Positions 1-64,000 of a DNA stretch of 64,000 bases are shown here, piece after piece. Position numbers and translations under genes: made by a program. The DNA lies in the NCBI GenBank assembly GCA_963514005.1, contig OY740786.1:34286001-34350000 (forward strand), read 5' to 3'. The notes under the pieces are model-generated. The model was not told the origin of the DNA, did not search any database, and saw only the letters and a list, made by a program, of their open reading frames with translations. This DNA is from Raja brachyura. Lineage: Eukaryota. Position 1 is the first letter of the stretch; every line of letters starts with the position of its first letter.

Positions 1-1268
1 ATTTACTGGACTTTATCTTGCACTAAATGTTATACCCTTTATCCTGTATCTGTAAACTGTGGACAGCTCGATTGCAATCGTGTATAGTCTTTCCACTGAC
101 TGGTTAGCACGCAACAAAAAACCTTTTCACTGTACCTTGGTACACGTGACAATAAACTAAACTAAACTAATTGAGGGTTAACCACTTCGCTGAGAATCAC
201 TTCCATCAGTGAATCAGAGGAGATTTTTATCACAAACTGATGATTTCATGATCACGATCACTGATATTATATTCCTGATTCATCAAATTGATCACATTAT
301 AATTTGTCATGTGGGATTTCAATTTATGTCTCCAGGTTATTTTTCCAGTTATTACTGGCTGCATGGTTCAAAGACATAAGCTTGATGCTAAAACACCCCC
401 AAAAAGCACACGTCCAGACATGGCTATATTTGATGAGGATTGGTCTGATGAGGGGTGTCAATCCAAAACGTTACCTATTCTTTTTCTGCAGAGATGCTGC
501 CTGACCCGCTGAGTCACTGCAGCATTGTGTGTTATCCTCGATGAGGATAAGTTGATTGAGTTCTAATGTCTAATGTTGATGGGCTTTTTGCAGCAAATTC
601 CTCAGTGGAAGATGAACAATTTAATGTGGGATTACAATGTCAGACTGGGACATTCCAATCAGCTATTGAGCACCACTAATTTGAGACATCATTGGACTGT
701 CATTATATACATGCTGATTAGTCAACTGCCTCCTTGTATTGTCTGTGGTTACATTTGGTTCAAGTAACTTATAAAATATGCAAACTGCAGCTATCATTTT
801 GCATAGTAAATACTATAAGTGTTGGATAAAGTATCTAATTTATGAATCAACCGTTTTACAATCCAATTTTATGTCTTAACAAAAATGCTGATTCAACAAT
901 ATTCCATTAAAAAAAAGGATTTGTTTCAAGTGTTTGTGATTTACATTCTTTGGTGATTGGATAAAACCCTAGCAACAGACTTGTGGTGAAATAAACAGTA
1001 TGTTCCACTGTGTGAAGCAATGGCTATGAATGACACACGTTAAATCTTTCACATAGACCTCTGTGCAGACAATAAGCTGAATTGAACCAAAACTAAATTT
1101 ATACTTTTCGGATTAGCTTCAGATGGGCCACATGCAAGGATCTAAGTATGTCTTCATTTGGAGAGGTTGTTAAACAACATACAACCCCAGGGTGGAAAAG
1201 GATAAAGAGTTGCAAATTGTTAAGCTTGTTTTTTTTTTATTAATTGTGCAGCTATTGGAAGCAATGCA

Positions 1269-1980
1269 GGGGAGGGGGAAGGGGGAGGGGGGTGGGGGAG
1301 GGGGTGGGGGAAGAGGAAGGGGGGGCTGGGGGAGGGGGAGGGGGAAGGGGGGGCTGGGGGAGGGGGAGGGGGAAGGGGGGGCTGGGGGAGGGGAAGGGGA
1401 ATTGAAGGGAGGGGGGGAGGAAGAATGGGGTGGGGTCTTGAGGGGGAAAGGGGAGGTGCAAGAGTACTGTTTATAGGATAGTTACCAAAAATTGGAGAAT
1501 TCAATGTTCATACCGTTGGGTGGTAAGCTACCCAAGCGGAATATATTGTGCTGTTCCTCCAGTTTGCATCTGGCCTCACTCTGTCAATGGTGGAGACCCA
1601 GCACAGAAAGGTCAGTATGGCAATGGGAAGGTGAGGTAAAATGGTTAGCAACCGGGAGATCCAGTGGGCCTTGGCGAATCGAGCTCAAGTGATCGTCAAA
1701 GTGGTTGCCGTGTCCACACTTTGTCTCGCCGATGTGTAAGAGGCAACATTGGCAGCATCAGATGCAGTATATGGGGTTTACAGGAGGTGCACGTGGACCT
1801 CTGTGAAACCTGGAAGGACTGCTGGGATCCTTAGATGAAGGTGAGGAGGAGGTAAAGGGACAGATGGAAGATCTCCAGCGGTTGGTGGGGAAATTACAGG
1901 GGGAAGGGTTGGTTTTGTGTGGAAAAGTACCCCTTGCCTACGTTCACCTACTATTGGCAATGCTCTGTCCTCCACCTTCT
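1269..1980 (-). mobile_element. Penelope-like element 3' fragment (GIY-YIG endonuclease) with G-rich tract
   Basis: The minus strand reads NPIYCI*C..C.LLHIGETK...DLPVANHF.SPSH.HTDLSVLG...KLEEQH.IFRLGSL.PNGMNIEFSNF. The low-complexity tract 1269-1455 lies 3' of it. Confidence 0.8.
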
Positions 1981-2555
1981 AGTTTCCAGCATTCCTCCCG
2001 GCCCTCGGCAATGTCTGAAGAAGGGTCCTGACTGGAAACGTCACTGATCCATGTTCACAGGAGATGCTGCCTAACCCACTGAGTTATTCCAGCATTTTGT
2101 GTCTTTCTTTGGTATAAGTCAGCATCTACAGTTCTTTATTATAACTATGTTGTTGGGTGGGTCAGCCTAAACACTCCAACAACATAGTCCTGTAACTGAG
2201 CAGTTTCAGCATTGAAGCTGTAACATCGCCTTTTGTTCGAGACCCAGTCCTAGGACATCAGCACCCATGAATGTCCTCTGGGAATTCAACATGGCAGCAG
2301 GATCTTAGATGCTGTAAAATCTGCACAAATACTGCAGCCTATACAAATAAATGGGAGAACTCAGCTGCTGGGAGGTAACCAAGTGAGGCTGCAAGTTGAT
2401 TTAATGTTGAAGTTAATGAAAATATTTTTACAGTCAAATTCCAATAACCTACTATTTGACATTTTGGAAATCCCGATAGTTTAGCTTCTGACTTTCCAGG
2501 CTATGATTTCCGCCCGCCTTTCTCTATATCGGGACACTGTTTCCTGAGAGCCTTA

Positions 2556-2834
2556 TGCCCCTGTTCCACTTAGGAAACCTGAACGGAAACCTCTGGAGGC
2601 TTTGCGCCCCACCCAAGGTTTCCATGCAGTTCCCGGAGGTTTTTGTCAGTCTCCCTAATGGTCGAAAGTGGTTTCAGCTTCTTCTATGTTCCAGCGATTA
2701 TTTCAAAAAATTAAAAAAACCTCCGGAAACCTGACAAAAACCTCCGGGAATCTCCGGGAATCGCACGGAAACCTTGGGTGGGGCGCAAAGTCCCCAGAGG
2801 TTTCCGTTCTGGTTTTGTAAGTGGGACAGGGGCA
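2556..2834. mobile_element. PIF/Harbinger-like MITE
   Basis: Long TIRs beginning TGCCCCTGT.CCACTTA; TTA TSD at 2553-55 and 2835-37. Confidence 0.8.
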
Positions 2835-3429
2835 TTATAAACAGAAGAAGGGTCTCGACCCGAAACGTCACCTATTCCTTTTCTCTAGAGATGCTGTCTG
2901 AACCGCTGAGTTGCTCCAGCTTTTTGTGTCTATCTTAGCCTTAGAAACTTGTCTGGTTCATCGGAAGCAAAATATTGTAATACTGAGAAACATCACAAAA
3001 TATGAATTAAACTGCTAAATGGAAACAACATCCAATAGTCCAGAAAATCTGCTAGTCTGGCACCATCATAGTACCATGTTTGCTGGATTATCAGAGCTAA
3101 AGTGTAATCATTTACTGGGATGTGCAATCTCTTCAGTCCACCGGCTTAAATTTTTTGCTCCATCCTCTTAGTCACTGCAGATATGAGATCACTCAAAGGG
3201 ATGGACTGCTATGTAACTAAATGTGTAATTTAAATTGACATCAGCATATGGACAGCAGCAGGTTTGACGATGGACTTCGACAGTGTACAGTAGAGCATAT
3301 TGACTGGTTGCATCACGGCCTGCTTTGGCAACTTGAGCCCATGAATGAAGGCGATTACAAAAAGGGCTGTACACTGCCCAGTTCATCACGGGTCCTGACC
3401 TCCCCACCATCAAAGGAATCTACAGCAGT

Positions 3430-3532
3430 GGGTTACACAAAAAGCTGGAGAAACTCAGCGGGTGCAGCTGCATCTAAGGAGCGAAGGAGATAGGCGACGT
3501 TTCGGGTTGAGACCCTTCTTCAGACTGGGTCT
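3430..3532 (-). mobile_element. Penelope-derived mini-element with hammerhead motif, inserted in an old LINE remnant
   Basis: 14-bp TSD GAATCTACAGCAGT at 3416-3429 and 3533-3546. Confidence 0.8.
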
Positions 3533-3944
3533 GAATCTACAGCAGTCACCGACTCAAAAAGGCAGCCAGCTTCATTAAGAACTCACATCACCCTGGCCAC
3601 ACTTTCATTTCACTCATGCCATCATGAAGAAGGTATAGGAGCCTGAAAACTGCAAGGTCCAGGTTCAGGAACAGCTTCTTCCCTGCAGCCATCAGGCTAT
3701 TGCACACTACAAATTTCAACTAAACCCTGAACAAAGAACTGCTTTGATTGCACTGGGGCTGTTTTTGTCTTTGCACGGTATGGTTTCCTTTTTTTTATAT
3801 CTTAAACTTATTTTTGTTGTTTATTATTATGTCTGCTGAGTACTCTCTTAACATATCTGTTTTGATGCTGCAAATAAGAATTTCATTTTTCCGTTTCAGG
3901 ACATATGATAATGAAACACTCGTGAGCCTCTACTGATTAAGTAA

Positions 3945-5799: not shown

Positions 5800-7154
5800 A
5801 ACCCCTGTCTCACGGTGCGAGTTGGCCCACGAGTGACCCCGAGTTTTCACTCGTGGTGATCACGTACAGCCAACGTGGTGGGAACGTCGGAACTCGCGCG
5901 ATCAACTTGTCCACTCGTGGCGCTAACGGCAGGTACCTGTGAAACTTGTGAACTCGTGAAAAAAGTCAAACATGTTTGACTTTTTCCACGAGTCAAATTT
6001 CGTGGTCAAGTTTAAAATTGAAACATTTAAACTCAGAGTTATATCGTAGTGGCCCGTGCGTTAAGTTTAGTGATTCGTGCGTCTACCGTGGGAACTCTTT
6101 AATAGACACAAAATGCTGGAGTAACTCGCGGACCAGGCAGCATCTCTGGAGAGAGAGAATGGAGTCGAGACCCTTCTTCAGACTTACCCAAAACGCCACC
6201 CATTCCTTCTCTCCAGATATGCGGCCTGTCCCGCTGAGTTACTCCAGCATTTTGTGTCTATCTATACTTTAGTTTCGGATATGATCAAGTGTAAGAAACG
6301 CAAACCAGACTACCTTCACATCAGAGAATCCTAATGTTCCTAATTTGGCCGAGGCACTTCACTGTCCGTGTGTAGGAAGGAACTGCAGATGCTGGTTTAC
6401 ACCGACGATAGACACAAACATGCTGGAGTAACTCAGCGGGACAGGCATCGCATCTGGAGAGAAGGAATGGGTGATGTTTCGGGTCGGGACCCTTCTTCAG
6501 ACTCCCCGCTCATTCTTCCCTCGTCGATGTGAACTTGTGGGGATGCGAGGAATCGGGCGTTGCTGGGTATGGGGAAGAGAGGTTTTACTGCTGAATTATG
6601 CGCAACAGAAGCATGAAGTGGGGGTAATGTCCGTTTAAACTATCTTGTCGTCCCCCCCTCCCCCCCCCCCCAATGTTGGGAGAGAGAGGGAAGAGAGTTG
6701 TGCAAACAAACCACGGGAGACTGCATCTTTGGAGGGAAATCATAAAATGTATAGGGATGTTTCGGGCCGGGACCCTAAAGGTTGACTACCCGTTTCGCAG
6801 ATGCTGTTCCTAGCCCCCCTCTCACAACTCCCCACCCATAGTCTTTGCCTTCTCCCAATTCCACCATCCCTCGCCCTGTCCTCGCCTGAACTGCTGAAGA
6901 TAACCGAGTGCTTTAAATGCGAATCCCGGACTGCAGCAACAACACACGCCCTGAGCGGGAGAGGAACTTGGTAACTCAAGAGCAAACGGGAGGGGAACTT
7001 GTTAACTCTGGAGACGACCTCGGAACATCGCAGATTACCATACCCGTGGGAACTCGCCTCAAACACTTGCACATCAACTTGGAATATCGTACACAACCAC
7101 GAGTCTGTCACTCTGGGTCACTCGTGTGTCAACTCGCACCGTGAGACAGGGCCT
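5800..7154. mobile_element. PIF/Harbinger-like non-autonomous element with nested Penelope mini-elements, inserted in a CR1 tail
   Basis: TIR of about 40 bp (CCCTGTCTCACGGTGCGAGTTG..CACGAGTGACCC); TTA TSD at 5797-99 and 7155-57. The CR1 3' UTR is continuous across the insertion. Nested elements lie at about 6103-6262 and 6368-6505. Confidence 0.8.
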
Positions 7155-9025: not shown

Positions 9026-12000
9026 CTACTCTTTTGATCCTTGTAATGCATAAGAATAACATACAAAATGTACAAATGAGTAGTAACAGGTCCACTGAGC
9101 CAGCGCTGCCATTTAATAAGATCATGGGTGATCTGATTGAAACCACAGCCCTATTCCTGTCTAGTGGGCAGGTACTATCGACCTGCACGGGAAGGCAGAT
9201 GCTCCCGTCACCACGAGTCTCGGGCAGATGGGGCTCGTCAGCCTGGGAAGGCAGTACATCTAGGAGAGGGAAAACTCTGATTTAAAATCTCCACTGCCTT
9301 GTGGCCATATCCAGTCATGGAAAAGGCTCCAGGAGTAAATCTCAAGAAAATCCACAGTCGGAGCCCCTAAGGCAGTTTGTCGTTGTCTGCAACCTCGCTC
9401 TGGCAGCTCCTGCGGCGACGCTGGTGCCAAATTGTAACGGCCCTGCTGTTCCTTTGGATCGATCAGCGACGTGGAGAGGGGGGACGTGCTGCATGGGCAA
9501 CAGCCTGTCCTCCATATCGGTCATGGTGGCACAACGGTAGAGTTGCTGCCTTACAGCAAAATGCAGCGCCAGAGACCCAGGATCGATCCCGACTACGGGT
9601 GCTGTCTGTATGGAGTTTGTACGTTCTCCCCGTGATCTGCGTGGGTTTTCTCCGAGATCCTCGGTTTCCTCCCACACTCCAAAGACGTACAGGTTTGTAG
9701 GTTAATTGGCTTGATAAAAATGTAAAATTGTCCAAGTTGGCGATATGCAGAGTACTTCTCTGCCGACGACAAAATTCAGAAGGTTCAGAAGGTACGACAT
9801 CGCCCAGGCTCGAATCCGACCAGGATGCATCATCCACAGTCAGTCATTACCGAGGCGGTGCCTAATAAGATTCCTGTCTACCCCACTAACCTCTCAGTTG
9901 TTTGCTTTTTAAATATCTATCCATCTAAGCGTTAAAAATGTTTAAAGATTCTGCTTCTGCCAATCTTTCAGAAGAAAGATCTGACCTCACAACCAGTTGC
10001 GAGAGGTAAAATGAATCACCTCTATCTTAAGTGTGTGGCGACTTACTTTTAAACAGTGACCCTTAATTCTTGATTCTCCAGCAAGAGGAAACAAACTCTT
10101 TACATCTGCCCTGCTAGGTCCCCTCATGGGATTTGTTTCAATCATGTCATACCTCAAATTTTCTAAACTCTGGCAGGTACAAGTCCGACCTGGCATCTCC
10201 TCAAAAGATAACCTCCCATTCTAGGTATCAGTCTAAACAAGAAGGCAAGGAGAAAAACGGACGGGCAAAGCCATTGAATGGAAAAGAAGTAGCTGCTGAT
10301 TTTATACTGCACTCTTCACCATGGCTCAGGAAGCATATGATTGAGATCACAGCACATTACTGGTCATGTAATTGACGACATTCTTCAATTAAATTGAAAC
10401 AAAACCATTCTCATTTAAATTCATTTTGTCACAAAATGCTTCTGAGATAATGGACTTGCCTCCATCATCGTTCATTAAGGCAGATTTACATGAATAAGCA
10501 GAAGACTAGTTCACAGATATTCCAATGGCTTGCTTGAAAATCCACCATTCTTGTGGCTTGGGAGATCTTACAAACCTCTTCATTGATAATGATCTGACAC
10601 ATAAACTATCACACATATTATATACAAAATGGACTACATTTATTTTTTGTCTGCACCGTCTACTTTTTTCTGCAGGAATTGCAATTGATTTCAACATAAA
10701 GAATATCAATAAAAGAACTAGGAATATCACCCAATTTAAAATAATTTTTCATGCCCTTATTTACAACTTTAACCTCCTCCAGTCCTTTAACTCTAAGATA
10801 TAAAAGCAGTCACCCTGTTCTTTCGTTTTATGATCCAACATTAGAGGCCATGCCTTTAACTACCAAGACCCTGAGTTCTGGACGACAAACTTAGGAACTG
10901 GGAGCAGGACAATTACCCTCAAGCCAGCCTGCCCAGTCAGTAAGGTCATGGATTATCTGATTGCAGTTACATTCCTGACTGCCCTTGGTAACCTTTCACT
11001 CTCCCACCCCCAACACTCTCTTGCTTATCCATTGTCTACCTACCTCCGCCATAAATGATTCAAGGACTCTGCTTACATTGTCCACCTCTCTACTTTACAT
11101 TTATCCATTTAGACTCACCATACACACCTCTCTCTCATCACCTTTCCAAAGATTTCATGACATAGAACAATGAAACTACTGTGAAGTACTTTGAGTTAAA
11201 GAAGGAACTGCAGATGCTGGAGAATCGAGGGTTACACAAAAAGCTGCAAAAACTCAGCGGGTGCAACAACATCTAAGGAGCGAAGGAGCAAAGTACTTTG
11301 AGATCTATGGCAGTATGAAAGGCCTCTGCAACTTTTGTAGTTAATACCACAATTAGTGTTATGGCAGGTGGTGCAGCGTTAGGGTTGCTGCCTAACAGCA
11401 CCAGAGACTCGGGTTCAATTCTGACTACAGGTGTTGTCGGTATGTAGTTTGTATATTCTCCGTGTGACCTGTGTGGGTTTTCTCCAGGATCTCTGGTTTC
11501 CTCCCACACCCTAAAGACGTACAAGTTTGTTGGTTAATTAGCTTGGTATAATTGTAAATTGCCCCTAGTGTGTGTAGGATAGTGTTCGGGTGCTGAGTTT
11601 GCTGGTCGGCACGGACTCGGTGGGCCGAAGGGCCTGTTTCTGCGCTATATCTCCAAACTAAAGTTCAAAGCAAAAATGACTTACTTATTGCAGGAATACA
11701 GCAATATTCTACACTACTGGTCCATGATCTTTCCACTTCATTACAACAATGGAACACTGCTGAAATGCATCTTGTGTGATGGTACTAAGATTGGAGCAGG
11801 CTTTAATGTTTAATGAGGTATACATCCACAAAGGTGTTTAGTGTCAGTGATCCAATAACCCCAGGAGAGCTGTTCCACATTGGGATTGTAATCATCTGTA
11901 AATACTGAACACCCTCATTGCAAAGAACTACAGGATGGGTAAAGGACTACAGGGTGGGTAATGGTGTCCGTTATTGCTGATTTTCCACGAGAAGCGAGTA

Positions 12001-12945
12001 AGATATTATCATTGTATTAGTAGAAACAACCATCTGCAGTTGATAGGAAATACATAAAAGGGCACAAAGTGCTGGAGTAAATCGCCAGGATAGGCATCAT
12101 CTCTGGAGATCATAGATAGGTACAGGAATACAGTTTTGAAACAGGACCTTCGGCCCGCCAAGTCCACGCCGACCAATGATCACCCATACTCTAGTTCTAT
12201 CCTATACATTAGTTACAATTTATAAAAGTCAATTAACCTACAAACCTGCACGTCTTTGGAATGTAGGAAGAAACAGGAGCATCCAGAGAAAGCCCATGCA
12301 GTCCCAGGGAGAACGCACTAACTCCGTACATACAGCACCCATAGTCAGGATCGAACTCAGGTCTCTGGTGCTGTAAGTCAGCAAGTCTACCACTGCGGCG
12401 CTGTACCACCCCATGCAAGACAACAGCAACAAATCCCAACTTAGATAGCACAGCAAGTACATCTCAACAATCGGAACAGGGAATTACCAAACAAATAAAC
12501 TGAGGTAGTACCACACCATGAGACATCAGAGCTGATAACCAAAGGGTGCATCTTATGCTTAGGTTTACAGAACTGCCTTAAAGGAGGAAGAATGAAAAGA
12601 GTTGCAAATAGCTTCAGGGAGAGTACCCCAAGTTTCTTGATTAGTACGGGTGTCACGGGTTATGGTAAGAAGGCAGGAGAATGGGGTTAGGAGGGAGAGA
12701 TAGATCAGCCGTGATTGAATGGCAGAGTAGACTTGATGGGCCGCATGGCCTAATTCTGCTCCAATCACTTATGATCTCAAGAGTTGAAGGTAGGGTTACC
12801 AACGGTGGGGGGAATTAAGTCAGGCACAGATATCCCCAAGGGTACAGTGCTGGTTTCAGAGAGAGGCAGCAATGAGACCATCTGATGATTTGAAAATATG
12901 AAAAAGTCCAGGGACTGTTTAATGTAGGAAATTAGTTAATGGGAC

Positions 12946-13505
12946 GTGTAGGAAGGAATTGCAGATGCTGGATTAAACCGAAGGTAGACACAAAAAGCTG
13001 GAGTAACTTAGCGGGACAGGCAGCATCTCCGGAGAGAAGGAATGGGTGACGTATCAGGTCGCGACCCTTCTTCAGAATGGTTCGGGATAAGGGAAACGAG
13101 AGATATAGACGATGATGTGGAGAGATAAAGAACAATGAATAAAAGATATGCAAAAAAGTAACGATGATAAAGGAAACTGGCCATTGTTAATTGTTTGTTG
13201 GGTGAAAACGAGAGGCTAGTATGACTTGGGTAGGGGAGGGATAGAGAGAGAGGGAATGCAGGGGGTACCTGAAGTTAGAGAAATCAATGTTCATACCACT
13301 GGGCTGGAAGCTGCTCAAGCGAAATATGAGATGCTGTTCCTGCAATTTGCATTTAGCCTCATTCTGACAATGGAGGAGACCTAGGACAGAAAGGTCTGTG
13401 TAGGAATGGGAAGGTGTGACCGACAACCGGGAGATCAGGTACGTTCAGGTGAGGTGGGCGAAGGTGTTCCGCGAAACGATCGGCCAGTCTACGTTTGGTG
13501 ACGTG
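12946..13505 (-). mobile_element. Penelope-like element 3' end: GIY-YIG C-terminus plus pLTR with hammerhead motif
   Basis: HSYTDLSVLGLLHCQNEAKCKLQEQHLIFRLSSFQPSGMNIDFSNFR, followed by a UTR containing CTGAAGAAGGGTCGCGACCTGATACGTC (minus strand, about 13047-13074). Confidence 0.85.
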
Positions 13506-14501
13506 ATGTCAGGTGGGAAATGAGTTTTAAAAGCGTTTTGGAAGTGTTCAATTGCCAAGGATGGAATGAAGAAGACTGGCTGGGATTGCATTAGTAAAGA
13601 AGGATACACGGGTGACAAAACTAGGGATGAAGGTTCCAGCAGCAAGGAGCTGGCACAGAGCCAACGGTAGAGTGGAGATACGCAGTCTTAGTGATGGTAT
13701 GATATGAGGAGAAGATTTCATTTGCATATAATTTGACCGCATGGTTGTGAATAGTCTGACAGGTGCTTAGAATTTGAATATACCATATGACTAAATGAAG
13801 CGATAATTTTATCCAAGCTCGGATAACCTCAGTAGACTGATGATGCTTTTGGGTATTTAATGGTGACAAATGTTTTACTCTTACATTGTTTTATAGAATG
13901 CATTTAATATTTCATGAACAAAATGCATCATATAAATTCAAACAATCAGCAAACACCAGAAATGTTCTCATTATTTCCAAGTGCACAAAAAAAATTGATA
14001 TTTTTAGCCACATTTAAAAGTTATATGTGCACAGTGTAACTCAGCAGCAAACACTCTAGCATTCTTTCAGATACTAGAACATAGAAAAATACAACACCGG
14101 AATAGGCCCATCGGCCCATAATGGCAAAAATGACACCAAGATAAACTATTCTCATCTGCCTGCATATAATCCATATCCCTCTATACTGCAAATCCATCTG
14201 TCTATCGAAAAGCCTATGGGTGTGTTGCAAGCATGCAACCCAACTATTCTCTTCCAGCTTTTATTCACATACACCCTTCATCTTGAAAGACTCTAATCGG
14301 CAAAATGAGCTTGGATCCAACCATATCACAGTTATCACAGCTCCTAATTGAAAAATATATCTAGTGCCTGGTTAAGTCTAATTTAACTGCTCTAAATGCT
14401 GAACTAACACAAAGTAGAATTGGAAAGTTGTCAAATCACAATACTGCACCACAGATAGACCCGGTTGAACGGCGTGAATCTCCCACTCTGGAGATAATGG
14501 G

Positions 14502-14764
14502 TTGTGTTAAAGAAGGAACTGCAGATGCTGGAGAATCGAGGGTTACACAAAAAGCTGGAGAAACTCAGCGGGTGCAGCAGCATCTAAGGAGCAAAGGAGA
14601 TAGGCGACGTTTCGGGTCGAGACCCTTCTTCAGACTCTGATAGGCGCCGTTTCGGGTCGAGACCCTTCTTCAGAAGAAGGGTCGCGACCCGAAACGTCGC
14701 CTATCTCCTTCGCTCCTTAGATGCTGCTGCACCCGCTGAGTTTCTCCAGCTTTTTGTGTAACCT
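14502..14764. mobile_element. Palindromic Penelope-derived mini-element with three hammerhead-like cores
   Basis: Inverted arms of about 95 bp (about 14540-14633 and 14672-14764); 13-bp TSD TGGAGATAATGGG at 14489-14501 and 14765-14777. Confidence 0.8.
14606..14633 (-). ncRNA. Minimal type-I hammerhead ribozyme motif (representative copy)
   Basis: The minus strand reads CTGAAGA-A-GGGTC TC GACCC-GAAAC-GTC: CUGANGA box, stem II hairpin, GAAA box, self-complementary ACGU stem III and a GUC cleavage triplet, as described for PLE hammerheads. Confidence 0.65.
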
Positions 14765-15532: not shown

Positions 15533-15746
15533 NNNNNNNNNNNNNNNNNNNNNNNNNNNNNNNNNNNNNNNNNNNNNNNNNNNNNNNNNNNNNNNNNNNN
15601 NNNNNNNNNNNNNNNNNNNNNNNNNNNNNNNNNNNNNNNNNNNNNNNNNNNNNNNNNNNNNNNNNNNNNNNNNNNNNNNNNNNNNNNNNNNNNNNNNNNN
15701 NNNNNNNNNNNNNNNNNNNNNNNNNNNNNNNNNNNNNNNNNNNNNN
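15533..15746. other. Assembly gap
   Basis: Run of N, preceded by an A-rich tail. Confidence 1.
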
Positions 15747-35934: not shown

Positions 35935-36120
35935 AGGTAACTGTTCCCGATGTTGGGGGAGTTCAGAACCAAGGGTCACAGTTTAAGAATAAAGGGTAGG
36001 CCAGTTAGGACTGAGATTATTACCCTGGCACTCGTGGCTGTGCCCATTCACACTGCTTCACACACAGCCAGCTTGGTGTCAGTACACTCACATTGCTGCA
36101 CACACACAGTTAGGACTGAG

Positions 36121-46480: not shown

Positions 46481-46944
46481 ACTGGGGGAAATGATTTTCC
46501 CACTTATTCAGCAAAGAGACAAAAAGTGCTGGAGTAGATTCAGAAACTGTTTCTTCACAGCTTTAACCAGACAAATGAACCATCTTCTCACCATCTGGAG
46601 TGCAGCCCTGATCTCCCATCTACCTCACTGGAGAGCTGTGAACTATCTTTAATCGGACTTTATCTTGCACTAAATGTTATATCCTTTATCCTGTATCTGT
46701 ACACTGTGGGCGACTTGAATCATGTATAATCTTTTCATTGACTGAATAACACACGCAACAATAAAAAGCTTTCACTGTAGGTCAGTACAAATGACAATAA
46801 TAAACTAAACCAATAAACTGAACTAGCTTGTTGTGCTACTATGCGTACCTCAATAATTAAACGTTATTATTTATGACATTTTTCAATCTACAAGAAAGTC
46901 ACTGTAAGAACCCATGCCTTGCTGCTCAATGAAGACAATCACAA

Positions 46945-50490: not shown

Positions 50491-51016
50491 CTTTCATTGG
50501 AGTCCGCCCGTCCTCCAGCATTGGGAGTACGATGGTCGAATTCCTCTGTGACCTCATGGCTGTGTATACCACAGGAACAGATTGTACAACCACTGGAATG
50601 CGGTGCAGTTTGTTGGACGGAAAGTTCATTGCATTTGAAGGTGGCATCGGGTGGATTATGTGCAAGTACTGTTGGCCCCCGACACCTGGCGAAGATGTCA
50701 CAACGGAGCCCGGCGCTAATACTGTAGACATGCCTGTCGATGAAGTCACTGAGGTTATCACAGTTGGGGATGAAGTCAATCGAGGAGCACAAGAGGATAT
50801 CTGAGGGATTGAGGTTATTGTCATTGAGCTGGGAGAGGAACGTGATGATGATACAGCTGTTGGTGATGTCCGGGCTTTGTTAATGGACAAGTCCACTGGC
50901 TCAGTTTGTGTTTGATATTGATCAGTGGATAACAAGACCTCTGGAGGCCCAGCTTTCACATTGTTAAGCAAAATAGGTACAGCTTCCATATCTGAAAAGT
51001 TAGGGGCTTGCGGAGA
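50491..51016 (-). CDS. KLF12: Internal coding exon of Kruppel-like factor 12 (N-terminal repression domain)
   Basis: Translation SPQAPNFSDMEAVPILLNNVK...QTQTEPVDLSINKARTSPTAVSSS...GVGGQQYLHIIHP...HRIPVVVQSVPVVYTA...LEDGR matches the KLF12 N-terminal region as I recall it, including the PVDLS CtBP motif. On the minus strand the acceptor is ttttattttaacAG (AG at 51018-51017) and the donor is aaag|GTaagt (GT at 50490-50489). Length 526 bp, phase 0 to phase 1. The ORF-track extension beyond 50491 is intron read-through. Confidence 0.93.
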
Positions 51017-54000
51017 CTGTTAAAATAAAACACAAATAAATATCACTGAGCATTTCATACTAAACCAAATGCAGAAATAAAAATGCCGCATTGCAATATA
51101 TCTAAAAGATCACATACATTGGCTTGAATTTGTGAAACACTTTGATTGAAGCTGAAAAGATAAAAGTAATCTTTGCTATTCAGTTTAAGCCATTTTAATC
51201 AAGAACATAAAGCTAACAAATTCCAACATTCAACAGAGTTAGTCCAAAGTTCATAGATCTTTTCAAATGAATGGATAAATGATTAAAATTAGTTAATTTA
51301 GTTTTAAAATCCATCCTGTTCTCACTTACAAAGCTTGGGCTAGGTTGTGATAGGAGTTATCTGATCCTCTGACTAAAAAACTAAAGATACATTTTATCAA
51401 AAATTGCCTCGGGTTGTTGTGTTTTTATGGTTAAAGAACAATAATGCAACAGCCAGAGTTTTGGTCAAAGAATACCCACCCTTTTGGGTCATTCAAATTC
51501 CAAAACAAGAACAAAATATGGTTTGGCGCGATGGCTCAGCGGTAGAGACACTGCCTTATAGCGCCAGAGACCCGGGTTCGATCCCGACTACAGGTGCTGT
51601 CTGTACAGAATTGCACATTCTCACCGGGACCTGCATGGGTTTTCTCCGAGAGCTCTGGTTACCTTGCACACTCCAAGCTAATAGTTTGGTTAAATTGTAA
51701 ATTGTCCCTAGTAAGTGTAGGATAGTGTCAGTGTGCGGTGATTGCTGGTCAGCGCGGACCATGTTGGTTGAAGAGGCCTGTTGCTGCGCTATATCTCTAA
51801 ACTAAACTAAACATTGCTCATTGCTTATCTTCGATCTGAACCCAGTTAGTAAACTCATTAACACCAGGGTTTTCCACTGGGTGATTAGGAACTCATCCAT
51901 AGCTGAACACAATTAATTAAATATTCCCATCACCAGGTAGTCCATTATCTAACTTGTACTAACAAAATGTATCAAGGCTGTAACTACAGTAGAGCCCGTT
52001 ACTCATCTTAGTAACTGTTTGATAAGCTGGGGCAGTTGGTGGCATTTCACTATAGAATACCAAAACAAAAAACACACTTGTTCAAATGCAGATATGCACA
52101 CAAAGCCTTTTATGAGATTGTACGCATGTACTTTTGCTATTGATTATGCTGGTTTCTGTTGTTAAATTTAGACAAACTTTTAAAAATATTCAGTGAGATG
52201 TATCCTAGCACATCCCTTGCCTGTAGGTGTGTTATGGGTGAAAGCATTTGTAAATTGAAACAGCAAGAAATTCCTGAGACCCCTTTTTCTTCTACTTTTG
52301 TGGACATTTTAGCTCAAGCCTGTGAAATAGTTGAAACGTGAACTATATGCACTGTCGAATCATTAAACTGTAATTAAAACAACGGTGTTGATATTTATGA
52401 GGAAAATGAGACTATTCATGCAACAAAAAAAAAATCATCTTCCTCCTAGTCTTTATATTACAACAATTGAATAAATAATGAGGTGGAACTCCTAAGGATT
52501 CATTAATTTTTTGAAGATTTAAATTAATGATTGACAGGGCTGTGTGCACAATCTTCCATCAATGATTTTTCCCATTTGACATTATTGGGATAGTTAAAAG
52601 CCAACAAGTGTTTCACCGAACTGCCAACCTTACAAAGTGGTGATCACTCCAACACAGATGGTGGGGAGAAGCACAGATAAAATCAAATTGTCCCTGAATC
52701 TATTAACTGAGTGTTGTTCATAATTCAATTCTGTAAGAGTCAGCCTCAGTGATTCCTTCAAGACAACCTGGCAAACGATGTCACCGTTCAAATATCAACT
52801 ACTTAACTTAATTAAACCATTCCTCAAGTTCTACATGGATGGAATAAGACAAATGATTAAGATTTGTCGCAGCTGTTGGGAGACGATTTTTAAAGCGGTT
52901 GCAAGGAGAGACCTCGAATGAGTTTTTATGAGCATTATGTGTGTGTGATTCCTATCTGCTTAAATACACGTTATTTTACAAATTATTGATTGGAATTTAG
53001 TCCTTTAATAACAGTTTATCCCAATTCAACAATTCCTTCAGTACATGGTCTTCAACATGATTTATTTTCAAAGGCCAACTCCCCCCCTCACCTTCCCACA
53101 ATCAACCTGAAGAAGGGAATCCAAACCGACAAGTCAACTATCCATGTTATCCAGAGATGCTGCCTGACGCACTGAGTTACTCCAGCACTTTGTGTCCTTC
53201 TGCGCAAACCAGCATCTACAGTTGCTTGACTTTATTGGCTCCAGGAACATAATGAAAAATGCAGAAAAAAGGGATTAGGAAGCAAAGATCAGCCATGATT
53301 GAATGGCGGAGTGGGCTCAGTGGGCTGAATCACTTAATTCTACTCCTATAAGTTGTGAACTTGTAATTATTTTTAAGCTACCTCATGCCCACTTTGAATA
53401 CTTCCCTGTGTTGACCAATTTGATGGTTGGGAGGTACAGCCACAAACTCAGGTGCAGGATTCAGAAGCGACATATTCATTTCCTGGGTTCATACCAAGTT
53501 TGTTACTCTAAGGTAGAGGCAGTAGTTAGAATGGATGACATTATTCAACACTAAGGATGTTATCATAAAGGTATCAAAAGCCACTCTATAGCAATCTCTT
53601 CTTGGAAGTTGGCGCCCGATCCAACTGCACAATTCATCCTTGGTTACAAAAGGATACAAAGTGCTGGAGTAACTCGGCCGGTCAGGCTGCATTAGTTTAA
53701 TTATTGGGTGGCGTACGATAAATAATTAAGTAAATTAAATTATATCAAGTGTACGAACAGCGATATGCTATAGGTAATTTTAGAACTTGGATGTTTCTGA
53801 CTTTGAGAATTCGGCTTACGAACAGTTGTCCGGGACAGGATCCTAGCATAACACAAGGACTGCCAACATCACAGAGACACTGTGAGTCACTATAAATCAG
53901 TGAATAGAAAATCACAAGGATATTCTTAATTAGGGCAATCCACCCCAAAAAGCAGGGTGACATGGGTGAATATATCGGAGGAATTATATGTTTTGAGCCT

Positions 54001-55378: not shown

Positions 55379-58300
55379 GAATATAGAAGATGGTGGGTTA
55401 AAATCTCATTTTAGACCCTAGAAAACCAAAAATGAAGTTGATTTCCAGCACAGCGTTGCTCTATGAGAGGTGCAGGAGTAGGCCATTCGGCTCATCGAGC
55501 CTACACCGCCATTCAATATGATCATGGGTGATCATCTAAAATCTGTACACCATTCCTGCTTTTCCCCCATATCCCTTGATTCCTTTAGCCCCAAGAGCTA
55601 AATCTAACTCGCTCTTGAAGGTGAGAAATTAAAGTGAAGCCTCCAATGGCCTGTAAATGCATGTCACTCTTGCGAAATGTGTGCTACGTTATACTACGTA
55701 CATTGATATCAGGACAAAGAAGGTTACTGCTAATTTTCATGTAACTGTGGTTTTGCTATTTCTCCCATTTTGCTCATTTTAACAGACACTATAATTTGAA
55801 TGTACTTAAATAGTTATAAATCAATTTCAACGTCCGAAGATTGCAAATGTACTACACTAATGATGTACTTACTTTTTAGGATGTTAGTTTTGCTGCTAGC
55901 AGCAATATCCACGTGACTTCAGATGGCAAGAGTGAAATCAGCCACTGCTCGACCTCTTATCGGGAATGGCAGAAATAGCAAAGCCACGCAAACATGAAAA
56001 TCAGCAGTAATCTATTTATCAGGTCAGTGCTAACTCTGTTTGTAAAGAAAAGCTTGAAAAACATTGAGAGTTTAGTATTAATCTCAGGCACTTAATAACA
56101 AGTATATTATGTTTTGAGATTTGCACATTGTATCTTATGGATGTATACACAATGCTCTGCTTTTAAAGACTTAAACGGCAATGTGATATCCGTATAAACA
56201 CACACAAACATATAAAGATGTGTCTATCTATCTAAACATATATAAAACTATTAAGAGCCTGTAAAGTGTCAGCTATTCTCTTACATGGATGAAGTAGGAT
56301 ACTGGTGGCTTGCAGCTGAACCCAAGATCCACACTCAGTCATTTACTAATCATCCTTACCGCCAACAACAGTATTGATCTGCCTATTAATTTTTATAAAG
56401 CAAAGCAACAATGTATTTCATTAAAGGCATCATCAAAAATTGGCAACAGAGAGAAGGACATACAGGCGGGAATCTTTCGCTATTTATTATGGAATTTCAT
56501 GGAGCATTTTAAAGGAAGAAAGAGGTTGTAGGCTTGGAGAAGAATTACCAAAGCCTAGTAGCTTGGCAGTCAAAGGTACTGTCCCAGTGGTGGAGTGATT
56601 ACATTATGGGGGATGATTATGAGGTCTGAATTTGAATAGCACCGATGCATTGGTGCTGTGGAGTTGCTGGAGAACGGGATAGGCAAGATTAACAATGGAT
56701 CTGAGAATAAAGGGGATCCACTACTTGAACCATTTACCATCACAAACCTCATAGTGAATCTTTTAGCCTCTCTACTTAAGTGGGATGTCAATTATATTGA
56801 AGTTTCAGAAGGATAGAGGAGGAAAATTAATAATAAAACTGCAGCCATATTGGAGTTAGCTGATGAATGTACAGGATAAATGCACTGAAAAGGTTTATTA
56901 AAACTTCATAAAGATCTAGTACTTACATAAAAATAGACATCGGAATAACTGCAATCCACTTTTGTTATATAAAGGCTATTAAGGAATAATTTGCCATTCC
57001 TAAAATTGTACTGATTTCTTTAGGCTGATGTTAAATACAACATTGAACGTTGTGAAGAAGGATCCTGACCCAAAACAACACCTATCCATGTTCTCTGGGA
57101 TGCTGCCTGACCCGCTGAGTTTCTCCAGTACCGTAGGTCTTATTTTATAAACCAGCATCTGTAGTTCCTTGTTGCTACATTGAACAGTATGGCACAGAAA
57201 CAGGGCCTTTGACCCATGACATCTGTGCCAATAATGATTCCTACTTAAACTAAACCCTTCTACAAGCACGTGGTCCATATCCCTCTATTCACTATACATT
57301 CATGTGCTTAATTAGAACTAAATTAAATTCATTTGTTGTAGGAGTAGAATCAGGCCAGTCAGCCCATCAAGTCTACTCCACCATTCAATCATTGCTGATC
57401 TGCCTTACGCTCTCAACCCCATTCTCCTGCCTTCTCCCCATAGCCCCTGCCACATGAATCTGTCAAACTCCAATTTAAAATTACCCATTGACTTGGCCTC
57501 CACAGCTTTCTGTGGCAATTAATTCCACAGATTCACCACCCTCTGACTTAAGAAATTCCTGCTCATCTCCTTTCTAAAGATCCATCCTTTTATTCTGAAG
57601 CTATGACCTCTGGTCCCAGACTCTCCCATGAATGGAAACATTCTGTCCACATTCACTCTATCCATACCTTTCACTATTCTTTAAGTCACTTTATGTGAGA
57701 AAGAATTTCCCACTATTATTACAGAAGGCAGGTGTGGAAGGTTTGTCTTCACATTATATTCAACTAGATTTTCTTCCTGCTTCAACTCGATTTTCTTCCT
57801 ACTTCTGCCTGGAGCTGTAACATCAACCACAATGATGTTCTTTGACAGATCAGTAATGGCTCACATCTGTGGCTGTCTTCTGGATAATATAGACTCTTTA
57901 CATTTGCAGATATGAAAATTAGGTCTACAGAGGATGCCATCTCCCTTGCAGTATATCCAGCTCTTACAATAAGAACATAGAACACAAAACAGTACAGCTC
58001 ACGAACAGGCCCTTCAGCGCATAATGTTTGTGTTGAACATGATGCCCAGTTAAACTGATCTCATCTGCCTGCACATGATCCATATCCCTCTATTCCCTGC
58101 ACTTCCATGTGCTTTTCCATTTGCCTATCTAAAAGCCTCTTAAACACCTCTATCATATCTACCTCCACCACCACCCCTGGCAATGTGTTCCAAGCCACCA
58201 CCACTCTCTGTGTAAATAACGTGCCCTGCATATCACAATCATTTCTCCCTCTCACATAATAGCTATGCCGTCTAGTGTTGGACATTTCTACCCTGGGGCA

Positions 58301-59901
58301 AAAAGTTCTGACTGTCTACCCTATCTATACCTCCAATAATTTGATATACCTCAATCAAATTTTTCCCTTAACCTCTGACGTTCCTACGACAAAGTGGGGA
58401 GGGTGAGGGTGAGGGGGAGGGGAGGGGGGGGGGGATGGGTAAATACAATCCCGTCCTCTTCAATGGTGCTGCTGTATTGAGGGTCAACAGCTTCAAGTAT
58501 TTTTTTGACATCCACATCACCAGCTATCTTCACACTGATGCCGTGATCAAGAAAGCACTCCCGCAGATTTACTTTCTTAGGTGTGTTCGCGAGGATCCTG
58601 TTGGACTTCTACAGATGCACTATGTGGATGGGATGCATCTGTCTGATGTAGTAACCGCATTATTCTTGACCGCCTGAACTTGAAAAGAGTATTGAATGTT
58701 GCCGAGCCCATCGCAGACTCATCAGTTCCTTTCATCCAGTTCATCCTCACATTGCATCAGGAAGGCTGGAAGTATCATCAAGCATGCCTGTCACCCTGGC
58801 CATTCTCTTTTCTCTATTCTACCATTTGGGAGAAGATACAGGAGCTTGAAAGTCTGGATTTCCAGAATTAAGAACAGCTTCTTCCCCACTGCCAAGAAAC
58901 TCCTGAATCAATGAACTCTTTCACACTCCCTTTCTGGAGGTGCTGCCACGTTCTCTTACTCTTTACTCCACTTCATTTGGTTATTCCATTATTGCACTAA
59001 TTCGGTATGCACTACAGTCATTGACCCATTCTGTTGTCTTGCACTCATTGTATTTATTGTGTACTCATTGTATTTATTGTGTACTCTATGAGCTTCATGA
59101 GAACTAGAACTATCATTGCGCCCTGGCGTATATGACAATAAACTAGAGACACAAGGAACTGCAGATGCTGGTTTACAAACAAAACCACAAGATGCTGGAA
59201 TAACTCAGCAGGTCCAGAACAAGGGGTCACAGTCTAAGGATAAGGGGGAATTCCTTTAGGACCGAAATGAGGAAAAAATTCTTTACACAGAGAGTGGTGA
59301 GTCTCTGGAATTCTCTGCCACAGAAGGTAGTTGAGGCCAGTTCATTGGCTATATTTAAGAGGGCGTTAGATGTGGCACTTGTGGCTAAAGGGATCAGGGG
59401 GTATGGAGAGAAGGCAGGTATGGGATACTGAGTTGGATGATCAGCCATGATCACATTGAATGGCGGTGCAGGCTCGAAGGGCCGAATGGCCTACTCCTGC
59501 ACCTATTTTCTATGTTTTCTATGTTTCTATGTCAGACATCATCTCTGGAAAACATAGATATGTGACGTTTCAAGCGGTGAATCTTCAGACTGATTACGGT
59601 GGGAGGCGGAAGAAACCTGGAAGAGAGAAGGGGCAGGACATAGCCTGGCGAGTGACAGGTGAATACAGGTGAGGGAATTTCTTGACAGTTGGAGCCAGAG
59701 ATGAAAAGAGAAAAGGTGTGAAATAATGATAGAAGAACAAATTGTGAAGCCAGAGGAAGGAATATAGGTGGAAATGGAGGGGTAAGGGAAGAAATGAGTG
59801 TGTGTCCAGGTGGGAGACAGGGAAGAAGGGAAAAAAAAACAAATAAACCAATTTGAATCTGAACGAAATGAGACCACTGCACCTGTCAGTATTAGAAGGA
59901 A

Positions 59902-60124
59902 GATAGGCACAAAAAGCTGGAGTTACTCAATGGGACAAGCAGAATCTCTGGAGAGAAGGAATGGGTGACATTTCAGGTCAAGACCCTTCTTCAGACTGAA
60001 GAAGTGTCTCGACCTGAAATGCCACCCATTCCTTCTCTTCAGAGATGCTGCTTGTTCCGCTGAGTTACTTCAGCTTTTTGTGTCTATCTTCGGTTTAACA
60101 CCAGCATCTGCAGTTCCTTCCTAA
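59902..60124. mobile_element. Palindromic Penelope-derived mini-element
   Basis: Inverted arms meet at cttcagactgaag; 14-bp TSD AGTATTAGAAGGAA at 59888-59901 and 60125-60138. Confidence 0.8.
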
Positions 60125-60825
60125 AGTATTAGAAGGAATTTGGCAGGCTATAAATAGTAAAGAATGCCCAGAAATTCCTACTTAGCTTTGCTTCCAACAA
60201 AGTAATTAATGTGCCACACTATTCAAAATAATGTTTTACACTAATGTCTGGTGGGGGTAACATTTAAGATTCTTGCACCAACTAGGGATGATGTGACTTT
60301 AAGACCGCTGCAGCAACATCCCCTGGTTTAAGAGATTACAAATGATTATTCTCTATCCCAAGTAAAATTAGTTTCTTATCAAAGATGCAATATTGATGAG
60401 CCCAGTGACATTCTAAACTGAGGCGCTATATCTCATTCTCAGAAAGCAATCAGGATTATACATTCCCATTTTCAAGCAGAGGCTGACTCACGTTTTTGTT
60501 CAGCCATTCCAATTAGCCTGCAGGCAGCCAGCAAAGTCATTCGGTGCAAGGAATGAGACTACTAATGAGGCTGGTGTGGTACGACAAAGCAAATAATATA
60601 ATGAACTAGAAATTTATCCTTCAGTTGTCTGTGCTAAATGTGCAACATAACTGGAATTGTGAACAATGCTCCGATTCCATTGCAGTGAATAGATCCTGAA
60701 GTTTGGAAAGAATAAAAATTGTGCATGCTACTTTATCCTAAAAAAAGCACACAGTGCAGGAGTAACTCAGCAAGTCACATGAAAGTAGGTGTGCAGGTAC
60801 ATCAGACAGTGAAGAAAGCAACTGG

Positions 60826-61710: not shown

Positions 61711-62494
61711 TATTAGGTCAGGCAGAATGTATGTGAAAAGAAATAAAATAGCTGTTTCAGGTTGGAGGCCATTCGGCAGAACGATAAAGGAGACCAAAGA
61801 TGCTTGTAAAGCAGTAGGGAGAGGAGTTAATGTCACACATGCACATTTCAGCCGGACCAAAAAATTAAGTGGGAGTGGTAGAATTGACTGGACTCCAGAG
61901 GGCTGCAACATGCCCATATAGAAGATGAGGTGATGATTCTTAATCTTATGTTGCAGCTAGTTGCAAAAGTACAGGGGAGCACAGACTGATAGATCAGAGT
62001 GGGAGTGGGATGGGGAATGAAAAATACAGGCAACGGAAAGCAGAGAATCACCCCAAAAAGTCACCCATTCCTTCTATCCAGAGATGCTGCCTGTGCCGCT
62101 GAGGTACTCCAGCATTTTGTGCCTATCTTCAGTGAAAAGCTTCTGCAGTTCCTTCCCACACATTTAATGTATTCTGTTTTTGACAATAGACAATAGACAA
62201 TAGACAATAGATGCAGGAGTAGGTCATTTGGCCCTTCGAGTCAGCACCGCCATTCAATGTGATCATGGCTGATCATCCCCAATCAGTACCCCGTTCCTGC
62301 CATCTCTCTATATCCCCTGACTCTGCTATTTTTAAGAGCCCTATCTAGCTCTCTCTTGAAACCATCCAGAGAACCTACCTCCACCGCCCTCTGAGGCAGA
62401 GAATTCCACAGACTTACCACTCTCTGTGAGAAAAAGTGTTTACTCGTCTCCGTTCTAAATGGCTACTCCTTTGGTTTCTCCAATGTAGAGGAGA

Positions 62495-62675
62495 CCGGTG
62501 CAGAACTCGTTGATTTCATTAACTTCACCACTAACTTCCACCCTGCTCTCAAATTCACTTGGACTATCTCCGACACCTCTCTCCTCTTTACTGACCTGTC
62601 TCCATCACAGGGGACAGACTATCAACTGATGCCTACTACAAATCTAGTGACTCCCACAGTTATCTGGACTACATT
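62495..62675 (+). mobile_element. Penelope-like RT fragment
   Basis: ELVDFINFTTNFHPALKFTWTISDTSL...GDRLSTD.YYK..DSHSYLDY, the PLE RT thumb region. Confidence 0.75.
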
Positions 62676-63796
62676 CCTAATATATGTCTATCTTTGGTGT
62701 AAACCAGCATCTGCAGTTCCTCGTTTCCTACACAAAGAAGGAATGGCAGATTTCTTGCACTGAAGTCAGGTGAGGTTTAGACCACCCCAAATCATTTCAT
62801 GGCCGTCTTATTTCCAACTAGCTTTTTAATTCCAGATTGATTTACTTACTTTAATTTAAATTCCCTATCTTCTGTGGTGGGATTAGAACTCATCCATCCA
62901 AATCAATAAGCCAAGCCTTCGCATGTCGGTCCTGAATATTAACCACTTTGCAAGCATGTGTATTAAGCAGGTAATTTAGCTTGTCTTTTGTCTGACATTA
63001 TCCTTGATCGTATTGTAATGAACTGATTTCACGTGTCACAGTGCTTTTCCTTTAAGCAAAAGTGAGATTCCACTGCGATGATGGGGGATGGGGATAAGCA
63101 AACAAAGCTGTAACAGCCTGATGGTACATCTGGGACAATAATGAGGCATACATCTCTTTCACTAGCCCAGGATTAACGATCAAAGCAAGCATTGGGTTGG
63201 ACTGCCAAGCGTGTAGCTCACAGTTGCCACTGGCAGCAGCGGGCAACAGATGGGACATCGCGGAGAAAGGAATGACAATTAAAGACACCGTAGAATCGAC
63301 ACATTCAGAGCACGCTACATGTAATCTGGCCTACCCTGCCCTGAGGACACATGGGAGGAAATGCTTGCAGTGGAAGAGAATTCTCAAAAGATCCAGATGT
63401 CCAGATTAGACTTTTCCAGGAATGGGCAAATTCCCCAGAGGAACCAACGAGCCGGGAAAATGCGCATGAAAATGGAGCATGAGAATTAGAAAAGACGCTG
63501 CATGTTTTTGCTCTCAAAAACCTACCAGCTGCTCTGCCTCTCACAAGGTGGGCTCAGGAAGCAAGCTCCCACCCAGTCAACAGGGGGATATGTTTAAGGG
63601 TTTAAGAAGGAACTGCAGATGCTAGAGAATCGAGGGTACACAAAAGGCTGGAGAAACTCAGCGGCTGCAGCAGCATCTAAGGAGCGAAGGAGATAGGCGA
63701 TGTTTCTGGTCGAGACCCTTCTTCAGACGTTTAAGGGTCTGAATAGGACTGTTCTTGTAATTGGATAGGAGGGCAGAAGTGAGTAGTACTTTGGAG

Positions 63797-64000
63797 GTGT
63801 AGGAAGGAACTGCAGTTGCTGGTTTAAACCGAAGACAGGCACAAAAGGCTGGTGTAACTCAGCGGGACAGGCAGCATCTCTGGAGAGAAGGAATGGGTGA
63901 CATTTCGGGTCAAGACACATCTTTAGACTAGTTAGGGATAAGGGAAACGAGAGATATAGACGATGATGTGGAGAGATAAAGAACAATGAATGAAATATAT
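63797..64000 (-). mobile_element. Penelope pLTR copy running off the window end
   Basis: Closely matches 12946-13140. Confidence 0.8.

Follow-up and report, generated by a model that had tools for sequence, protein, structure and literature searches.

A 64,000-nucleotide stretch of the Raja brachyura genome (GenBank assembly GCA_963514005.1, contig OY740786.1, forward-strand positions 34,286,001 to 34,350,000; hereafter the window, numbered from its first letter) holds a dense family of short insertions that carry a minimal hammerhead motif and represent the 3′ end of a GIY-YIG Penelope-like element (PLE). We propose, with a probability of about 0.6, that the PLE protein nicks its target, starts copying at either of two internal sites and reaches the end of an uncleaved RNA template that begins just before the hammerhead core, with priming on both strands giving inverted units that have one long and one short end.

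A family of hammerhead-bearing arms

The hammerhead pattern CTGANGA-N13-GAAA-NN-TH has seven exact matches in the window against 0.06 expected (none of 100 shuffles reached seven) and 17 against 1.45 expected when one mismatch is allowed. All 14 example positions named in an earlier reading of this DNA from its letters alone (the sequence-only reading) are among these 17, the one placed at 13047 being 13048–13075. A profile search with nhmmer, built from 12 window copies and run at a cut-off of E<1e-3, identified 38 arms (Table 1), which make up 30 loci and occupy about 5.9% of the window, and found none in the reversed window. The core is spanned by 23 of the 38 arms, in agreement with the roughly 20 copies first claimed. 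We assigned the arms by eye to subfamilies A (19 arms, 90% identity), B (7 arms, 96.7% identity; young) and C (12 arms, 83% identity; mixed and older). A reading frame through the module was considered and rejected, as no single frame was open in all three subfamilies (copies read by eye).

The core boxes, stem II, the palindromic positions 15.2–16.2 and the location in the pseudo-long terminal repeat (pLTR) agree with the proposed identity as a minimal type-I hammerhead. With the metazoan PLE hammerheads described in the accessible text of PMC4209133, the copies share CUGANGA, an extra base before stem II, G10.1–C11.1, GAAA, the 15.2–16.2 palindrome and the lack of helix III; their helix I of two contiguous base pairs resembles that of D. 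virilis, and their stem II has 4–5 bp compared with 7–8 in the schistosome ribozyme. The description of the copies as intact or degenerate hammerheads held for the motif, although an Rfam scan of the window gave no hammerhead family match even at E≤10, and the core and stem II (with the palindrome) are intact in only 5 of the 23 core-spanning arms. Rfam microRNA matches at 59922–60069 were rejected, this interval being a fold-back unit.

The module is the 3′ end of a Penelope-like element

At 12946–13505 on the minus strand, the C terminus of a frameshifted GIY-YIG PLE open reading frame (ORF) is followed in turn by a pyrimidine-rich pLTR, the motif and a tail, which bears out the earlier assignment of this interval to a GIY-YIG Penelope with the motif in its 3′ pLTR. 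Further PLE ORF remnants at 1485–1913, 61891–62034 and 62494–62648 each adjoin an arm. The ORF-linked copies, found in subfamilies A and C, end in the same module as the short ones. The PLE origin first suggested for the short copies was upheld.

A profile search of representative proteins returned 68 relatives of the 12946–13505 fragment, mostly short gene models, and all five that were looked up are skate and ray records. Weak GIY-YIG matches were present in 4 of 11 scanned relatives (E 0.001–0.008, below the curated cut-off), and both 12946–13505 and 1485–1913 align to proteins that have such matches and end at the same residue. A CX2-6CxxC linker pattern occurs in 6 of the 68 relatives (most are too short) and is degraded in the window copy. 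The relative P0017 matches 62494–62648 and joins what we take, by eye, to be reverse transcriptase (RT)-like motifs to the endonuclease; Pfam gave no RT match for P0017 and no relevant family in any of five short window fragments.

In the part of PMC8557442 available, a CX2-5CxxC linker with a C-terminal GIY-YIG domain defines Neptune or Nematis. This definition points to one of the two for the window element, and on its motifs, not an RT tree, the clade is probably Neptune, the linker pattern being shared with Nematis. Endonuclease-containing (EN+) Neptune PLEs, as far as PMC8557442 and PMC3846280 describe them in their accessible text, have the same C-terminal GIY-YIG, hammerhead-bearing pLTR and strong 5′ truncation, and a linker pattern of their CX2-5CxxC type occurs in some relatives of the window fragment. 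Also shared are inverted head-to-head copies, a 30–40 bp tail, palindromic junctions and target-site duplications (TSDs) of about 8–14 bp. Unlike those insertions, most window units have only 90–130 nt per arm and no ORF.

Two side observations concern the source family. Public gene models P0002, P0016, P0053 and P0004 fuse a host protein (GPCR, DUF4518, NYAP) or another RT to the PLE endonuclease end, which may reflect exonisation or annotation error. In addition, 111,943 contigs of one run align to one 851-bp copy, a figure that is not a copy number.

Target-site duplications mark separate insertions

All seven TSDs of 10–14 bp quoted in the sequence-only reading are exact in length and place (Table 1). 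Exact repeats of at least 9 bp (9–14 bp) flank 9 of 30 loci compared with 5 of 150 mismatched boundary pairs (Fisher p=3.6e-5), supporting the view that the units are separate TSD-bounded insertions. The insertion bounded by the TSD at 3416 breaks the reading frame of a long interspersed nuclear element (LINE) whose parts to either side remain colinear, in keeping with the duplication of one site. When TSDs were sought over longer distances, one of 15 cases was credible (49364/49882).

Two 3′ ends and long/short inverted pairs

The 3′ ends of the arms cluster twice, with 12 of 38 at model positions 92–106 (short) and 20 of 38 at 128–132 (long), and the 34–40 nt between the two ends make up the tail. 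These two ends delimit the PLE tail of 30–40 bp, which is described at one end of PLEs, together with inverted 5′-truncated copies, in the accessible portions of PMC8557442 and PMC3846280. In the Poseidon element PAc of the green anole, too, the 3′ ends are fixed at two places downstream of the hammerhead and mark out a tail, which there lies between two internal RT start sites (PMC11167929, available text); carried over from the anole element, the two window ends would be RT start sites. PAc differs in belonging to another clade, and in the window module no ORF start was identified.

Contigs of four public runs, two only guessed to be RNA and one unlabelled, were aligned on 12800–13650, and the six best-supported loose ends of each run were listed. 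Both arm ends recurred among these: 12985 appeared in all four runs and 12946 in three of four; the top-listed ends in run X1 included 12946 (939 contigs) and 12980, 12985 and 12986 (584, 1070 and 530 contigs).

Inverted pairs occur at seven loci, all head-to-head, and six of the seven combine one long with one short end. Predicted hairpin energies at five fold-back loci range from −98 to −197 kcal/mol. Two junctions, 59993–59997 and 14666–14676, are perfect palindromes centred on the fixed 5′ spot described below, and since no two fold-back units share a junction, none is a second copy of a composite. The sequence-only reading had overlooked the pairing of long with short arms as well as the fixed positions of the 5′ end and of the two 3′ ends.

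A fixed 5′ end before the core

After exclusion of five pLTR-bearing arms (2013, 13076, 53107, 59589 and 63928; 53107 by eye), 19 of 34 short arms, at 14 of 25 loci, were found to start at model positions 1–4, just before the CUGA box and without upstream pLTR homology (binomial p~8e-9, taking a 9-nt window out of 95 positions as an approximate null). Among the contig ends listed, 13076 was the largest in all four runs, with 2008 contigs in X1, and the predicted cut site was not among the six listed per run. Loose ends at 13050/13052 were set aside as artefacts of a diverged reference. In the long copies the start base lies within a YYANWYY stretch, which we take to be an initiator consensus, after a pyrimidine tract (upstream sequence 70–80% pyrimidine).

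The fixed 5′ end may mark where the template RNA began and, because arms start before the core and few start at the cut site, the template was probably mostly uncleaved RNA. Available parts of earlier work agree: a transcription start within the pLTR is known for PLEs (PMC2377424), and for the anole PLE uncleaved RNA is the insertion substrate, with two internal priming sites and both strands extended (PMC11167929); we infer the same substrate for the window units. Clustering of 5′ ends at one base before the core is not described for Neptune PLEs in the accessible text of PMC8557442 and PMC3846280, nor is an analysis of the 5′ ends of genomic PAc copies in that of PMC11167929. Our literature search, with Repbase, Dfam and subscription papers outside it, found no report of 5′ clustering at the hammerhead or of such short units in cartilaginous fish. 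By eye, about 5 of 9 cases had an additional G preceding the 5′ A, as from cap copying; this was rejected as a signal, most cases being explicable by microhomology.

About 190 nt upstream of the acceptor-like site that precedes the hammerhead, the stop region of the PLE at 13266–13270 (minus strand) resembles a splice donor, a likeness weakened by the majority base at 13269 in aligned contigs. A single unverified X15 contig joins 13050 to 13270, with unknown letters between, and could be a spliced form.

Proposed course of insertion

The copies themselves display their PLE origin, TSDs, end positions and neutral decay. In our proposal, the RT/GIY-YIG protein of a Neptune-like Penelope would make separate target-primed insertions, beginning reverse transcription at either of two sites 34–40 nt apart downstream of the hammerhead. 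The template would be uncleaved RNA, its 5′ end most often at the A three bases before the core, within the initiator-like YYANWYY of the pLTR, and the enzyme would run off it after 90–130 nt. Priming from both nicked target strands would give a head-to-head unit with one long and one short end, and run-off ends that jump to a second template would give the inner tandem cores and one LINE chimera. Copies would then decay neutrally, carrying a hammerhead inherited from the source element.

In that chimera (49364–49893, plus strand), a LINE 3′ end is fused to the PLE module inside one 12-bp repeat pair. It possibly records a PLE-to-LINE template jump after run-off, and a later insertion of the LINE is another possibility. 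The 5′ break of this LINE and the point where the 3430–3532 copy inserted almost coincide in LINE position.

Several points weigh against this account. The RNA start site, the priming on two strands and the template jumps are what we infer beyond the copies, and the supposed start is a weakness in itself: YYANWYY matches 1.2% of positions, and the start bases can also be taken for a splice acceptor or a short palindrome. The contig count at 13076 is inflated by a mismatch between the reference copy and the family at 13077 and by clipping, at this point, of other subfamilies whose pLTR differs, and 2413 further loose ends lie beyond those listed. Two or three of the 34 arms (12121, 29637, 53712) do start near the predicted cut (31/32). 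An exact TSD of at least 9 bp is missing at 21 of 30 loci, and no full-length PLE was found within the 64-kb window. The arms of 59902–60124 share four variants, which fits an already mutated source or conversion between arms. A more specific version, in which the short units would record the Penelope reaction itself, with RNA starting at the initiator base before the hammerhead, priming at the 5′-proximal of the two internal sites and nicks on both strands each priming one arm, we put forward only tentatively, as a possibility.

Other explanations of the ends

Structure could set the 5′ ends instead. A longer complementary DNA would fold back or be trimmed, either at the palindrome CAG-T-CTG or at the stem base of a hairpin (the core's 5′ strand paired with downstream sequence), or an antisense template would prime itself. 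The two perfect palindromic junctions fall at this spot, four folded modules give a rod beginning at base 2–3, and palindromic junctions with self-priming have been proposed for rotifer PLEs (PMC3846280, accessible text). However, single arms that abut a TSD start at the same place (63728, 48878, 443 and 57051), RNAalifold gives no shared structure across 19 copies, and self-priming alone leaves arms with different 3′ ends unexplained, and we consider this explanation unlikely.

Short non-autonomous master copies, like a short interspersed nuclear element (SINE) driven by a host or pLTR promoter, might alternatively be amplified in trans by the PLE protein. This would suit subfamily B best, in which, besides its youth, six of seven arms start at model positions 1–4, all five loci have exact 10–14 bp TSDs, and no copy with a pLTR or ORF was found in the window; non-autonomous PLE derivatives do exist (MRC1, PMC8557442; bioRxiv 10.64898/2026.07.22.740005; available portions). 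What makes it quite improbable is that each fold-back unit has its own junction, with no composite copied twice, that the arms share no head upstream (compared with five long copies, and by eye), and that in subfamilies A and C copies linked to an ORF terminate with this module. Rfam gave no tRNA, 5S or 7SL match at the module, and the copies share no head of the kind looked for in a SINE, derived from a structural RNA with an internal promoter.

We regard as very unlikely a third possibility, that the fixed 5′ end is a splice acceptor (a pyrimidine tract with YAG directly preceding the core) and spliced RNA gave rise to the copies. The pyrimidine-rich sequence upstream of long copies, the AG kept by two of them and the intron of D. 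virilis Penelope that ends at the 5′ end of helix I (PMC4209133, accessible text) would fit, but the AG, which splicing would have eliminated, is still present in many short arms, no common upstream exon is present, no intron-type ends occur at this place among the best 15 of 232 contig joints, and PLEs are known to retain introns.

The hammerhead decays as a passenger

The copies decay neutrally after insertion, with the core changed like the downstream module and no covariation. Relative to the group consensus, non-CpG core positions were changed at 20 of 282 (7.1%) and those of the downstream module at 232 of 2577 (9.0%; p=0.32). The rate of change was roughly double at CpG positions, of which G12 is one. 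Covariation among 19 aligned arms did not exceed that of shuffles (377–481 of 500 were as high on the measures used), RNAalifold on 19 copies found no shared consensus structure, and compensatory change amounted to one double change in 171 cells, in a small and related sample. Subfamily C alone, a mixed group, leans to conservation (6 of 87 core positions changed compared with 119 of 783 downstream), which tells against neutral decay. Overall the copies give no sign of ribozyme function, and the sequence-level outcomes that the sequence-only reading had itself named as telling against one, a core no better conserved than its flanks and no covariation, are those we observed.

Helix I has two contiguous base pairs in all eight testable arms, where 4–5 bp were expected, with weak 4-bp duplexes in two subfamily C copies. 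In each of four intact copies the hammerhead-like fold is 4–11 kcal/mol weaker than the best fold, a rod pairing the core with downstream sequence, under an energy model that ignores the hammerhead core's own contacts. Two loci hold tandem cores 29–40 nt apart, both with a defective core and within hairpins of −164 to −197 kcal/mol. Cleavage as dimers has reportedly been described by Lunse et al. (RNA Biol). Dimer cleavage of minimal hammerheads is mentioned in a review (PMC6765202, available text). Most window copies, with changed cores, a 2-bp helix I and competing hairpins, are predicted from folding probably not to cleave. Judged from its sequence, the motif is a true PLE minimal hammerhead by descent and a passenger in the copies, and the hammerhead was probably kept by selection in the source elements.

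Despite five cores intact on paper, two tandem-core loci and two or three starts near the cut, it is highly improbable that the units are retrozymes, in which self-cleaved monomers form circles and integrate again, or active ribozymes cutting a host KLF pre-mRNA, given that none of 30 loci is head-to-tail, units do not run from cut to cut, the two inner tandem cores are partial or mutated and lie with defective cores in long hairpins, helix I and the competing folds are as above, and no selection, covariation or strand bias was seen. Known non-LTR retrozymes, in the accessible parts of PMC7229834 and bioRxiv 10.64898/2026.07.22.740005, are similarly short, non-coding, hammerhead-bearing and related to PLE pLTRs, with TSDs longer than 4 bp; they are head-to-tail tandem repeats, often with canonical hammerheads and expressed as circles, whereas the window units are single or head-to-head, minimal and mostly decayed. 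Of the two natures first suggested for the units, truncated PLE insertions stood and retrozyme-like units did not, there being no head-to-tail arrays and 19 of 34 arms starting before the core.

Table 1 Hammerhead-module copies, linked PLE remnants and the host exon in the window
Position	Strand	Feature
441–539	+	Subfamily C single arm; short end; 9-bp TSD 432/540; G12 changed
1485–1913	-	Older PLE ORF fragment, linker and GIY-YIG, stops; head-to-head with arm at 2013
2013–2141	+	Subfamily C module; intact core; long end; upstream pLTR-like sequence kept
2842–2937	+	Subfamily C single arm from core; short end; TSD not found
3430–3532	-	Subfamily B single arm; intact core; short end; 14-bp TSD 3416/3533; in LINE ORF remnant
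6102–6263	.	Head-to-head pair, short and short; stem II deleted; TSD not found
6370–6503	-	Subfamily A single arm, fixed 5′ base to long end; TSD not found
6717–6776	-	Degenerate partial arm, E 8.5e-4
11196–11290	-	Subfamily B arm without ribozyme; long end; 12-bp TSD 11184/11291
12025–12121	-	Old subfamily C arm; start about predicted cut site
12946–13505	-	5′-truncated Neptune-like PLE, subfamily A; GIY-YIG C terminus 13499–13268 frameshifted; pyrimidine-rich pLTR ~13267–13079; minimal hammerhead 13075–13048, A14 changed; predicted cut 13048/13047; tail end 12946
14502–14764	.	Subfamily B fold-back: minus arm long, intact core 14606–14633; plus arm short; 13-bp TSD 14489/14765
14646–14673		Inner tandem core of fold-back unit 14502–14764
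16504–16623	.	Head-to-head pair, long and short; 11-bp repeat, one mismatch, 16494/16627
18164–18385	.	Head-to-head pair, short and long; junction at core start
18979–19080	-	Degenerate subfamily C arm
25859–26130	.	Fold-back: minus arm long; plus arm short, intact core 26037–26064; 12-bp TSD 25847/26131
25995–26022		Inner tandem core fragment of fold-back unit 25859–26130
29637–29737	+	Arm without ribozyme; start about predicted cut site; long end
48285–48472	.	Head-to-head pair, long and short; 8-bp repeat 48277/48473
48788–48876	-	Subfamily B single arm; short end; 12-bp TSD 48776/48877; C3 missing
49376–49881	+	Chimera: LINE 3′ end (~375 bp, short tandem tail) and module from core (49752), long end; 12-bp repeat 49364/49882
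53107–53229	+	Subfamily C arm; short pyrimidine-rich upstream stretch, pLTR by eye, homology score not significant
53637–53712	-	Degenerate arm
57049–57176	+	Subfamily C single arm; long end; 9-bp TSD 57040/57177
59151–59216	-	Partial arm; long end
59531–59589	-	Subfamily C arm; upstream pLTR-like sequence; stem II degenerate
59902–60124	.	Fold-back: minus arm short, plus arm long; palindromic junction 59993–59997; 14-bp TSD 59888/60125
60718–60777	-	Degenerate partial arm
62038–62159	+	Arm, damaged core; head-to-head with weak GIY-YIG remnant 61891–62034 (-)
62682–62734	+	Tail fragment after PLE RT remnant 62494–62648 (+)
63602–63728	-	Subfamily B single arm; long end; 10-bp TSD 63592/63729
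63797–64000	-	Subfamily A copy, upstream pLTR; runs past window end
~50491–51016	-	Host KLF3/8/12-type exon, PVDLS motif; not part of element

Host gene and neighbouring sequence

The earlier statement that minus-strand copies lie in the sense of a KLF12 pre-mRNA was right as to the strand of a KLF-type exon (Atlas match 'KLF transcription factor 8', weak at 0.90); the name KLF12 reflects a presumed likeness. Zinc-finger motifs were not found in the window, and much of it is therefore probably intron. Relative to this exon, single-arm loci show no orientation bias (14 minus, 9 plus; p=0.40), and nothing in the copies suggests that ribozymes regulate the host KLF gene.

Other elements share the window. 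Overlapping long ORFs at about 19770–24050 (plus strand) with RT (E 7.6e-7) and tyrosine-recombinase (E 3e-6) matches appear to be a fairly intact DIRS-type retrotransposon, the family name being assigned by inference. A Tc1/mariner-type transposase remnant in several frames lies at 31222–32375 (minus strand; HTH_Tnp_Tc3_2, E 1e-8). LINE RT ORFs occupy 35941–37706 and 46908–47759 (plus strand), with a C-terminal part that matches Pfam ALKBH8_N above cut-off, and the LINE pieces at 3300–3700 and 49376–49750 are of the same class. A further non-LTR element is represented at 44260–46082 (plus strand) by long ORF pieces whose C terminus is CCHC-like and nuclease-like by eye; 45096–46079 had no Pfam match. 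A short ORF at 35569–35913 (plus strand), ending before GT and presumably resembling the N terminus of a TDP2-type protein, may be an exon or a piece of a gene; it lies on the other strand from the KLF exon. The assembly has a gap (a run of N) at 15533–15747, and 358 N in the whole window.

Significance

Dispersed single minimal hammerheads, some in opposite-strand pairs, were ascribed to truncated PLEs in 2014 (PMC4209133), and the accessible text of that work does not name cartilaginous fish among PLE hammerhead hosts. With such hammerheads already described, the finding as first written is mostly ordinary, and its value lies in the ends, for how PLE tails and inverted copies form and what the hammerhead does. 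If the more specific version put forward above is correct, with RNA starting at the initiator base just before the core, the minimal hammerhead would sit at the very 5′ end of the RNA, which would explain its 2-bp helix I, and protein-assisted cleavage would remove a 31-nt capped leader, making it a switch between mRNA and template, not a tandem-processing enzyme. A very abundant family with fixed ends and clean TSDs makes these questions about PLE ends testable and, on the same premise, the very many copies in each skate or ray genome would chart, in vivo, where the RNA and reverse transcription begin.

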